A stretch of 32,091 nucleotides of DNA from an uncultured ANME-1 euryarchaeote (lineage in GTDB: Archaea; Halobacteriota; Syntropharchaeia; Alkanophagales; Methanospirareceae), in assembly GCA_965195275.1 (NCBI GenBank), contig CBDAFQ010000174.1, forward strand, positions 1 to 32,091. The letters run 5' to 3'. The translations under genes were made by a program, and so were the position numbers. The notes under the pieces were generated by a model. It did not search any database and was not told where the DNA came from. It was given only the letters and a program-made list of their open reading frames with translations. Positions 11,357-13,884 of the stretch are shown piece after piece (the first letter of the stretch is position 1; every line of letters begins with the position of its first letter).

Positions 11357-12580
11357 TCACGCTATACTCCCTGCACCGATCAAATGCCATCGAGCACCTA
11401 TCTTCATCCCGATAGCCACTAAAGCGCCCTTTTCTGCACATATCGGTCTGCTCAGAGCCACATCAATAGTGTCCTTAGTCACCCTTTTCACTAAGCCCAT
11501 GGTGATTGCGGTTCCGATACTCAGCATTACATACTCGCGCACTTTAATCGCCTTAACCTCCACCTCCTTTGCTACACCAACAACGCGTTTCAAAAGATGA
11601 AAATTTATACTGAGTTCATTCCATGTTGGTGGCAAAGAGCCTGGATTACCTACACACTGACCCACTAAAGTGTCCTCCCTCGTCATGCCCGGGTCCAACT
11701 TTGTGCCGATGCCGATTAATCCACCAGGAGTCACCGCTTCTACTTGATCGCCACCCACTATTATCGAGGTTATCTCGGTTTCTATTGGTATCCACTCTTC
11801 TTTGCCTTTAGTTGACACTTTTCTTCCAGGTTTTATTTCTAATTTGTCATCTGCACTCAACCTACCCAGAAGTAGAGAACCGCCGATTACACCACCCTTT
11901 AGGGCTTTTATTGGCGTTCCGGGCTTATTCACATCGAAGGAACGTGCAATGTGCATCCTCGGTGCTATATCAAAGGAACGTTGCGGTGTGGGTATCGTTT
12001 TTTCTATAGCCTGTATCAGCACATCAACATTTGCTGATTGCTGTGCCGCGATAGGCACAATAGGTGCATTTTCCGCTATTGTACCCTTTAAAAACTCCTT
12101 TATTTGTGTATAATGCTCTATTGCCTCTTCACGCGAAACAAGGTCTATTTTATTCTGCGCGATTACGATTTTATCTATGCCTATTACGTTTAGGGCCATC
12201 AGGTGCTCCTTTGTCTGTGGTTGGGGACATGGCTCGGTAGCAGCAATAAGAAGAACAGCACCATCCATTATCGCTGCACCGCTCAGCATAGTCGCCATTA
12301 ACGCTTCATGCCCCGGAGAGTCAACAAAAGAAACAGTTCGCAGCTCTTCCGTCTTCGAGCCACAAAGCTTACATATCTCTTCCACCGTGTAGCAATCCGG
12401 CTCGTTACAAGCCGGGCATCGCCTGAATGTAGCGTCTGCATAGCCTAGTCTTATTGATATACCTCTCTTGACCTCCTCGCTGTGTCTGTCAGTCCATTCG
12501 CCAGACAGAGCGTTCACTAAGGTCGTCTTACCATGATCTACGTGTCCTACCATTCCTATGTTCACCGAAGGCTTAGTCAG
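11357..12580 (-). CDS. eif2g: Translation initiation factor 2 subunit gamma (aIF2-gamma); probable CTG start at 12580
   Basis: [26 protein letters not shown], Zn knuckle [26 protein letters not shown]. No ATG/GTG/TTG between GTG 12565 and the in-frame upstream stop at 12620-12622. AAGGAGG lies 8 nt before CTG. Confidence 0.97.
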
Positions 12581-12588
12581 TTTCTTTT

Positions 12589-12595
12589 CCTCCTT
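12589..12595 (-). promoter_or_regulatory. Shine-Dalgarno AAGGAGG of eif2g
   Basis: Minus strand reads AAGGAGG-AAAAGAAA-CTG ACT AAG CCT TCG GTG AAC. Confidence 0.75.
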
Positions 12596-12747
12596 CTTTT
12601 GATTGGGTTTAACGGTTGCTTACTCCCCGACAACTTACACTCGCTAACTCTTTTATCTTCACTTTCTTTATTTATTTATATGCACCCTTAATAAAAGATT
12701 TCTTTTGTAAAGCTTTCTTTATTAATGAACTGTTTGTGGTGATGGGA

Positions 12748-13884
12748 ATGGAATTTGAATTAAAAGAGAGTGAGAAGGCGTTTCAGCGCATATCGAGGCA
12801 GTTTGCAGAGACAGAGATAATGCCAAGAGCGGCCGAGATAGACAAAAAAGGGAAGTTCCCCCGAGATTTAGTGAAGAGAATGGCCGAGCTAAAACTTTAT
12901 GGTATTCCTTTTCCACGAGAATACGGCGGTGCAAGTGCTACGATGGCAAGCTATGTAGCTGTGGTCGAAGAGCTTTCAAGAGCAAGTGCAAGCATTGGTT
13001 TTCTAAGCTCTGCAGGGCTCATCACTATATTCCCCATCTACTACGCAGGTACAGAGGAGCAGAAACAGAAATATCTCAGGCCCCTGTGTGAAGGTACGAA
13101 GTTGGGTGCTTTCGCTTTAACCGAGCCCAGTGCAGGTTCCGATCCCACCGCTATTGATACAAATGCTGTTCATGAAGGTGATGAATATCTGCTGAACGGT
13201 AGAAAGGCGTATATCACGAATACCTCTGTTGCAGATATATACATAGTTTTTGCATATACTGATAAGGGCAAAAAAAGGGGCGGGATGAGTGCTTTCATCG
13301 TGGAGAAAGGGACAAAAGGCTTCTCTTTTTCGGGCATCGACGATATGCTGGGCATGCGTGGTTGTATTGTTGGCGGGTTGAAGTTCAATGATTGTAGAGT
13401 CCCCGAGGAGAACTTGCTTGGCAGCGAAGGCGACGGATTCAAAATAGCGATGGGTACTCTGGACAGAGATAGAATAGCAATGAGTAGCGTTGGGGTCGGC
13501 ATTACTCAAGCTTGCCTGGACATCTCCAAGAAGTATGCAAAAGAGCGAAGACAATCATCACAACCAATTGCTAATTTCCAGGCAGTTCAATTTATGCTCG
13601 CAGACATGGCGGTGGAAGTAGAAGCAGCGAGATTACTCACCTACAAAGCGGCTCATCTCGCGGATAAAGGCGAGAAGATCACAAAATATGCTTCAATTGC
13701 TAAGCTCTATGCCTCAGAAGTTGCGCAAAGAGCCGCTACAAACGCAGTGCAAATACATGGCGGTTATGGCTGCACGAAGGAATGCCCTGCGGAACGGTAT
13801 TATCGAGATGTGAAGATACTTAGCATTGCTGTTGGCACTTCGGAGATACAGAGACTGGTGATAGCGCGGGACGAGTTACTATGA
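12748..13884 (+). CDS. Acyl-CoA dehydrogenase family protein (atypical active site)
   Basis: GAFALTEPSAGSD, LNGRKAYITN, FIVEKGTKG, LGMRG, QIHGGYG, ERYYRD, GTSEIQRLVIAR. Start at ATG 12748 (or 12742) after GGTGA. Confidence 0.93.
   Translation: MEFELKESEKAFQRISRQFAETEIMPRAAEIDKKGKFPRDLVKRMAELKLYGIPFPREYGGASATMASYVAVVEELSRASASIGFLSSAGLITIFPIYYAGTEEQKQKYLRPLCEGTKLGAFALTEPSAGSDPTAIDTNAVHEGDEYLLNGRKAYITNTSVADIYIVFAYTDKGKKRGGMSAFIVEKGTKGFSFSGIDDMLGMRGCIVGGLKFNDCRVPEENLLGSEGDGFKIAMGTLDRDRIAMSSVGVGITQACLDISKKYAKERRQSSQPIANFQAVQFMLADMAVEVEAARLLTYKAAHLADKGEKITKYASIAKLYASEVAQRAATNAVQIHGGYGCTKECPAERYYRDVKILSIAVGTSEIQRLVIARDELL

Follow-up and report, generated by a model that had tools for sequence, protein, structure and literature searches.

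A near-cognate start codon is proposed for the gene of translation initiation factor subunit aIF2-gamma in ANME-1 archaea

We analysed a stretch of 32,091 nt (hereafter the window), which is contig C174 (CBDAFQ010000174.1) of the 83%-complete genome of an uncultured ANME-1 euryarchaeote (GCA_965195275.1), and examined the start of the gene for aIF2-gamma, the initiation factor subunit that carries the initiator tRNA. The gene lies on the minus strand, on which an in-frame TAA (12622-12620) closes the frame upstream and is followed by the codons GCA ACC GTT AAA CCC AAT CAA AAG AAG GAG GAA AAG AAA. These hold a Shine–Dalgarno (SD) sequence, AAGGAGG (12589..12595, with the core GGAGG at 12593-12589), and an A-rich spacer of 8 nt (12581..12588). 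Then come the CTG proposed as a near-cognate start (12580-12578), the codons ACT AAG CCT TCG (T K P S, 12566..12577), which belong to the protein only if translation begins ahead of the GTG, and the GTG itself (12565-12563), from which the open reading frame (ORF) listing calls a product of 402 aa. After AAC ATA GGA follow the ATG of MVGH (12553-12551), used as the start in most public gene calls (398-aa products), the codons GTA GGA CAC, and the P-loop or G1 motif GHVDHGKT (12524..12547), which served as the alignment anchor for all N-terminal comparisons. Read from the CTG, the coding sequence occupies 11357..12580, with 407 codons plus a stop at 11357-11359, as judged from translation, similarity and Pfam domains. 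An earlier note on this DNA, made from the letters alone, had proposed the CTG as the start, and its description of the region was correct throughout: the core of the SD is 8 nt from the CTG and 23 nt from the GTG, and no in-frame ATG, GTG or TTG is found between the TAA and the GTG. Its reading of the GTG as the conserved valine of a family motif was also borne out by translation, as this codon gives the Val of VNIG.

The gene product is aIF2-gamma without doubt. Residues 4-406 of its 407 match the solved archaeal aIF2-gamma chains 1kk0, 2d74 and 1s0u (E = 1e-155), precomputed Pfam assignments for the product and its homologues comprise PF00009 (GTP_EFTU), PF03144 (domain 2) and PF09173 (eIF2-gamma C-terminal), and the homologues are named as IF-2 subunit gamma of Methanophagales, Methanophagaceae or ANME-1. 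The genome contains a single orthologue, with a best match of 1.7e-272; the next matches, at 1.4e-15 or weaker, read as aEF1A-like, aIF5B-like and EF2-like proteins. All of the solved aIF2-gamma chains have 6-9 residues ahead of the Val of VNIG, and initiation at the ATG of MVGH would cost the protein VNIG, the strand leading into the P-loop. Among the best 120 public protein clusters, 66 begin with M[VI]GHVDHGKT and six with [MV]NIG, and we regard these as truncated calls, which means that ANME-1 aIF2-gamma is mostly mis-annotated in the public records, at the ATG of MVGH. One NCBI record (P0003, 90% identical, 407 aa) is annotated as MTKPSVNIG, the N-terminus given by the CTG reading; the DNA behind this record was not found in the genome contig collection, where the best match had 91% identity.

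The arrangement of SD and CTG is more than chance, given the background in the genome. Genome-wide, only approximately 1% of the in-frame codons ahead of a first canonical start are preceded by GG[AG]GG at a spacing of 6-10 nt (177 candidates in all), and the same motif stands 6-10 nt upstream in only 64 of 995 ORFs taken from their first ATG. Spacers between SD and start cluster at 6-13 nt in this genome and are rare from 17 nt on.

Within the genus, the CTG is conserved. GGAGG, 8 nt and CTG were present in all seven genus genomes holding the region, with the CTG at codon −5 counted from the Val of VNIG, and in six of the seven no canonical codon stands in frame anywhere from the upstream stop to this Val. 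In one genus genome (L009), the Ser-Val pair reads TTG CTG, and the CTG at −5 is retained. A scan of metagenome and genome collections for the same ribosome-binding site, followed by NNN in place of the start codon, returned one metagenome contig and six named genus genome records, all with CTG; thus no relative with this ribosome-binding site has the ATG or TTG at 12580 that, according to the earlier note, would have marked the CTG as an error or a private mutation. Assembled contigs from four sequencing runs of three studies (three labelled as RNA, the fourth of uncertain kind) cover 12554-12610, and no difference at 12578-12580 is among the differences listed for them.

Outside the genus, the corresponding codon is mostly ACG. 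The family (Methanophagales/ANME-1) was represented by 66 genomes with 62 matches to the gene, of which 59 N-terminal regions were read and three lacked the 5′ part. A near-cognate codon occupies the SD-defined site in 53 of these 59, namely seven CTG and 46 ACG, so that ACG is found at the codon homologous to CTG in 46 of the 52 family genomes beyond the genus. This ACG lies at −5 in 44 genomes and at −6 in two, and follows GGGGGTAAGCAAA or a close variant of it. The spacer from GG[AG]GG is 8 nt in 39 of the 46, as in all seven CTG genomes, 9 nt in two and 10 nt in one, and four genomes have a weaker SD. In 35 of the 46, no canonical in-frame codon occurs from the upstream stop to the Val. 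The Val codon is GTA, GTT or CTG in nine of the 46, and in eight of these nine the first in-frame canonical start is the ATG of MVGH. Six genomes of the family are exceptions and carry an ATG further upstream: L023 and L066-68, which form a subclade of one genus, and L029 and L030, which fall outside the core clade of the gene tree. In L023, where such an ATG is available, the codon homologous to the ACG has been free to drift and reads ACT.

Codon variation around the ACG was analysed in 44 aligned sequences, 42 of them distinct. The ACG is invariant at all three bases in 44/44 sequences. It is followed by a first codon for K (AAG in 18, AAA in 17, others in nine), a second for K (AAG 23, AAA 21), one for P (CCT 27, CCA 11, CCG 6) and one for S or A, and across these four codons the major allele has a frequency of 0.52-0.61 at third positions and 0.77-1.0 at first and second positions. 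Upstream of the ACG the periodicity is gone, changes fall at first and second positions, and in-frame stops appear at −7 (one genome), −8 (three), −10 (two), −11 (eight) and −12 (two). Because the three-base periodicity holds from codon −4 on and is lost upstream of the ACG, where the stops lie, translation is predicted to begin within codons −6 to −4, where no near-cognate codon other than ACG is conserved. Two other placements were rejected. Codon −10 is GAG, AGG, AAG or others, with ATG, GTG or TTG in only 3/44 sequences, and a start in another frame followed by a frameshift finds no ATG, GTG or TTG in any frame of the conserved stretch GGGGGTAAGCAAAACGAAGAAG. The alignment of the 5′ region across ANME-1 that the earlier note had called for gave a CTG kept within the genus and an invariant ACG in the rest of the family. 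Taken together, the genus CTG, the family ACG, the constant SD spacing, the periodicity and the non-start Val codon of nine relatives strongly support its proposal of a start at CTG 12580 rather than at the GTG.

To place these codons in the history of the family, we used a maximum-likelihood tree of 44 full-length products, from which L010 was left out as its product is truncated. The core family clade has a support of 100/100 and consists of three groups, the window's genus with CTG and two groups with ACG, and L023 with its ATG is nested among the ACG genomes. The putative near-cognate start is thus, on this distribution, an old property of the gene in the family. Upstream of the present SD, on the minus strand, the window holds GGGGAGTAAGCAA (12616..12628), which by eye appears to be a relic of the older ribosome-binding site GGGGGTAAGCAAA-ACG. 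In a by-eye comparison, this stretch, now out of frame, is followed by approximately 36 extra bases carrying the new GGAGG and CTG. If the relic is read correctly, the genus would have swapped one near-cognate start for another and not for a canonical one. The new ribosome-binding site of the genus, AAAAGAAGGAGGAAAAGAAA-CTG (12581-12600), is by eye close to that of aEF1A in the same genomes, AAAAGAAGGAGGGAAAAGGAAAAA-ATG.

Elsewhere in the class (79 genomes), the start codon differs from family to family. Two genomes of family f2 have GGGGG, 9 nt and an ACG further upstream, with no canonical alternative. In family f6, L032 has GGGGG, 8 nt and ATA, with a stop two codons upstream and GTT GTT at the Val positions; its first canonical start is only the ATG of MVGH, which would make ATA a third kind of near-cognate start, seen in this single genome. 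The sister family f3 and family f5 have TTG at −5 or −4, apart from one f3 genome with ATG, and family f4 has an ATG start. Across the class, 72 N-terminal regions were read, and 56 of these show no canonical start where the SD would place it. In the phylum outside the class, a canonical aIF2-gamma start lies upstream of the Val in 123/123 sampled genomes, the nearest being TTG in 70, ATG in 33 and GTG in 20, counts that are descriptive only since the genomes are related. The TTG there usually lies 8-10 nt behind GGAGG or GGAGGT and is kept within whole families. The weak canonical TTG looks like the earlier state that gave rise to ACG and CTG.

A similar arrangement recurs in another phylum. 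In one family of the Bathyarchaeia, the gene was present in 55 of 60 genomes, and its N-terminal region was read in 50 of them (L433-L482). Of these 50 genomes, 18 have (G)GGAGG, 8 nt and CTG at codon −9 of aIF2-gamma, and the CTG is followed by AAR AAR CTG CCC AAA CAR CCN GAR with synonymous variation. Six of the 18 have no canonical alternative whatever. An in-frame GTG is present at −12 in seven of the 18, where it is part of the SD (GGAGGTGA); the others have GCN, GTA, ACN or GAG at this position. L438 has TTG at the codon of the CTG, directly after a stop, L442 and L443 have GGTGA, 6 nt and CTG behind a stop, and L448 and L455 have GGAGA, 8 nt and ATT with no canonical start in frame. The remaining members of this family have an ATG start. 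We take the SD with CTG in the Bathyarchaeia to have arisen independently, as a second instance of this arrangement on aIF2-gamma.

We compared aIF2-gamma with other genes for translation factors. In the ANME-1 family, aEF1A, aIF2-alpha and aIF2-beta each start with ATG at 30/30 loci, and aIF1 has an ATG within its first three codons at 30/30 loci; aIF5B in the window's genome starts with ATG, and aEF1A in the Bathyarchaeia family is canonical in 30/30 (25 ATG, five TTG). For aIF1A, the 30 family loci have TTG (24) or GTG (six) and no ATG. This TTG sits behind GAGGAGG, and the copy of the window's genome is at G000:C1:5010-5306, which makes aIF1A a second factor with a conserved weak start. 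Genome-wide, no enrichment of near-cognate codons was found behind a strong SD (CTG 2/138 and ACG 2/163, against a background of approximately 1%). Since there is no such excess, CTG and ACG are not general start codons of the organism, and the feature belongs to aIF2-gamma. One further CTG candidate, on contig C3, was spurious, as the recognizable N-terminus of its protein begins at a downstream ATG.

The leader and the tRNAs were then inspected. From 12660 to 12530, the leader has a minimum free energy of −14.2 kcal/mol against −20.9 kcal/mol for shuffled sequences (z = +2.3). It is thus less folded than the shuffled sequences, and a regulatory fold within it was ruled out. An upstream ORF (uORF) with termination and reinitiation was also rejected: a frame from TTG 12633 to TGA 12579-12577 overlaps the CTG and is not conserved, since a TAA interrupts it in the close relative L006 and the ACG genera have no counterpart. 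The frame at 12577-12633 (minus strand) continues the former reading frame of the ACG. Dedicated initiator tRNAs for ACG or CUG were dismissed as well, as aragorn returned an ordinary initiator-like tRNA (anticodon CAU), and the Thr(CGU) and Leu(CAG) tRNAs that it found all looked ordinary. Three copies or fragments of the initiator-like tRNA-Met(CAU) are found on contigs C128, C131 and C146; two of them run off the contig ends, and a repeat may have broken the assembly there.

On these grounds, we consider it quite probable that aIF2-gamma is translated from a near-cognate start, CTG in this genome. The start would work as follows. The GGAGG, 8 nt upstream in an unstructured leader, would place the 30S subunit with its P site over CUG 12580 (or over ACG in the other genera), and the ordinary initiator methionyl-tRNA (Met-tRNAi, anticodon CAU) would pair with CUG or ACG despite one mismatch, so that the product of this genus would begin with (M)TKPSVNIG. 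A start of this kind is expected to have low efficiency and to respond to the factors that check codon–anticodon pairing. Its most likely consequence would be that the output of the gamma subunit is held down and depends on how far aIF1, aIF1A and aIF2 tolerate the mismatch. The data show the order of the elements, their conservation, their restriction to this gene and a coding signal ahead of the called GTG; initiation at CUG or ACG with Met-tRNAi, positioning by the SD and any regulatory use are all inferred from sequence.

Several points weigh against this interpretation. In 11 of the 46 ACG genomes, an in-frame ATG, GTG or TTG does precede the Val, either at −1 or somewhere from −10 to −16, and its position is unconserved. 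The genomes counted are related, so the counts are not independent, and the origins number perhaps three or four, the candidates being ACG, CTG, the ATA of L032 and the CTG of the Bathyarchaeia. The RNA data are assembled contigs, which are blind to starts, strand and minor variants and may contain DNA. Pairing with the SD was taken from the general archaeal consensus, as the 3′ end of the 16S rRNA is absent from this assembly. Three further points bear on the regulatory part: the fidelity factor aIF1 has a normal ATG, we know of no mechanism by which the level of aIF2-gamma would lower near-cognate initiation, and the weak codon might simply be offset by the very strong SD.

The retention of the near-cognate codon deep within the family, the lack of any ATG at this site, the swap to another weak codon and the recurrence in the Bathyarchaeia argue that the weakness of the start may have been selected for on aIF2-gamma. 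A feedback loop on start-codon fidelity, which the earlier note had suggested, is on present evidence a doubtful step further, drawn by analogy. It would mean that archaea possess a principle like that of infC and eIF1, in which aIF2-gamma synthesis is coupled to the stringency of start selection through a near-cognate start placed by the SD; we offer this only tentatively. With the same reserve, and likewise as something that we think rather unlikely, such a system might have evolved repeatedly, in ANME-1 and in the Bathyarchaeia, from the already weak UUG that is widespread in the phylum (Halobacteriota), forming a homeostatic loop between aIF2, aIF1 and fidelity, possibly with AUA and AUU starts too. 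The gene specificity, the age and the recurrence in another phylum are compatible with a feedback loop, and the data are accounted for just as well by a weak start that is constitutive.

The latter explanation, to which we give a little less than an even chance, accepts the near-cognate start as real and dispenses with feedback. A weak codon and a very strong SD would together set the right low output of the gamma subunit, and the pair would be locked in, since a change of the codon alone to ATG would over-produce the subunit. The SD is indeed unusually strong, in view of the 64/995 first-ATG ORFs given above, and has been retained together with the weak codon; the leader lacks a fold capable of switching; aIF1, the expected sensor, has its normal ATG; and the SD with TTG of the sister lineages fits a graded setting of weak starts. 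By itself, however, a constitutive setting leaves unexplained why this gene, and not aIF2-alpha, aIF2-beta or aEF1A, should be affected independently in two phyla, and why the genus replaced ACG with a near-cognate and not a canonical codon.

If instead translation started at GTG 12565 (MNIGMVGH...) or at the ATG of 12551-12553 (MVGH...), with the upstream codons as untranslated leader, only canonical start codons would be used, and nearly all public gene calls among the best 120 clusters use these two. We regard this as improbable. The GTG lies 23 nt from the SD, outside the cluster of 6-13 nt, the homologous Val codon is not a start in nine relatives, and the four codons upstream of it vary synonymously at third positions with their amino acids fixed; the ATG start would delete VNIG, while the solved chains have 6-9 residues ahead of its Val. 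Highly improbable, in our judgement, is C-to-U editing of the mRNA, which creates start codons in plant organelles and would here turn CUG into UUG and ACG into AUG. Both near-cognate codons are exactly one C-to-U change from a canonical start, but one transition from TTG or ATG is also their likeliest mutational path, the RNA-library contigs over 12554-12610 have no change at 12578-12580 among their listed differences, and neither the ATA of L032 nor the ATT of L448 and L455 could be repaired by C-to-U editing. An assembly or sequencing error or a private mutation, in favour of which nothing was found, has a negligible likelihood given the CTG in seven genomes, one metagenome contig and the contigs of four runs and the ACG in 46 further genomes.

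As in autoregulated genes of the infC and eIF1 type, a conserved sub-optimal start is found here in a factor's own gene. Bacterial infC (IF3), with its AUU start, is reportedly under translational autocontrol (Butler et al. 1987, cited in PMC4705826). Both cases have a conserved start outside AUG, GUG and UUG by a ribosome-binding site, with the neighbouring translation genes normal. They differ in that IF3 itself rejects non-canonical starts and so closes a direct loop, whereas aIF2-gamma carries the initiator tRNA; in addition, the codons here are ACG and CUG and not AUU, and the archaeal case is known from sequence alone. A second comparison is with eukaryotic genes of the EIF4G2/DAP5 type, whose main start is CUG, ACG or GUG. 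In these also, the main ORF of a translation factor is read from a near-cognate codon by Met-tRNAi. Unlike these genes, which depend on scanning and Kozak context, aIF2-gamma would rely on positioning by the SD.

The eukaryotic factors eIF1, through an AUG in poor context, and eIF5, through uORFs in poor context, are also autoregulated (PMC6237735). The likeness lies in a machinery of the eukaryotic and archaeal type, in which synthesis would depend on the stringency of start selection. The differences are that eIF1 and eIF5 use poor context or uORFs around AUG, whereas a near-cognate main start on the gamma subunit is proposed here, and that archaea have neither scanning nor eIF5. Among archaea themselves, mismatches at the start codon are tolerated at GUG and UUG starts and at near-cognate sites of Haloferax (PMC4705826, PMC7261190), and the present start is similar in this respect. 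Ribosome profiling of Haloferax volcanii placed approximately 30% of putative alternative initiation sites at near-cognate codons, which the authors set aside (PMC7261190). Unlike those minor or alternative sites, the codon described here would be the only available main start of an essential gene, and family-wide. In Sulfolobus, it is aIF1 that prevents binding to an AUU mRNA in vitro, so that the discriminator is aIF1 and not aIF2, and the 2014 review that describes this leaves open, in its section 10, whether GUG and UUG starts serve archaeal translational control (PMC4705826). A word search of a 2020 review of archaeal initiation (PMC7531240) found no mention of near-cognate, non-AUG or CUG starts, autoregulation, feedback or start codon usage, and our literature search found no report of a non-canonical aIF2-gamma start, nor of any archaeal initiation factor controlled through its start codon.

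If the proposed start is correct, aIF2-gamma would be a clear case of an essential and conserved archaeal gene with a near-cognate codon as its only main start, and programs that accept only ATG, GTG and TTG as starts will misplace the start of this essential gene in two or more lineages of archaea. The ATG, TTG, CTG and ACG found on one orthologous leader form a natural codon series, and the system makes it testable whether the eukaryote-like initiation machinery of archaea regulates itself through start-codon fidelity.

Upstream of the leader, an A/T-rich stretch at 12667..12697 (minus strand) is promoter-like, with TTTTATTAA at 12696-12688 and TATAAATAAATAAA at 12680-12667, and may be the promoter of the gene. 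TTTTATTAA, together with its flank GAAATC, is found again ahead of aIF2-gamma in other genera (L013, L015, L037 and L039). Two contig ends from the RNA libraries of one study, at 12658-12660, give a weak hint of a 5′ end. The neighbouring ORF, at 12616-13884 on the plus strand, is divergent, with a probable start at an ATG near 12745 (MGMEFELKE...) and approximately 165 bp of intergenic DNA between it and aIF2-gamma; we take its translation to read like an acyl-CoA dehydrogenase. Elsewhere in the genome, the ORF of an MFS-type transporter (G000:C19:136-1305) has GGAGGT, 7 nt and ATC, 20 codons before its first canonical start, a TTG. The ATC is kept in the only genus relative with the gene (L514, from 2588 downwards), and in these two sequences it is a possible second near-cognate start.

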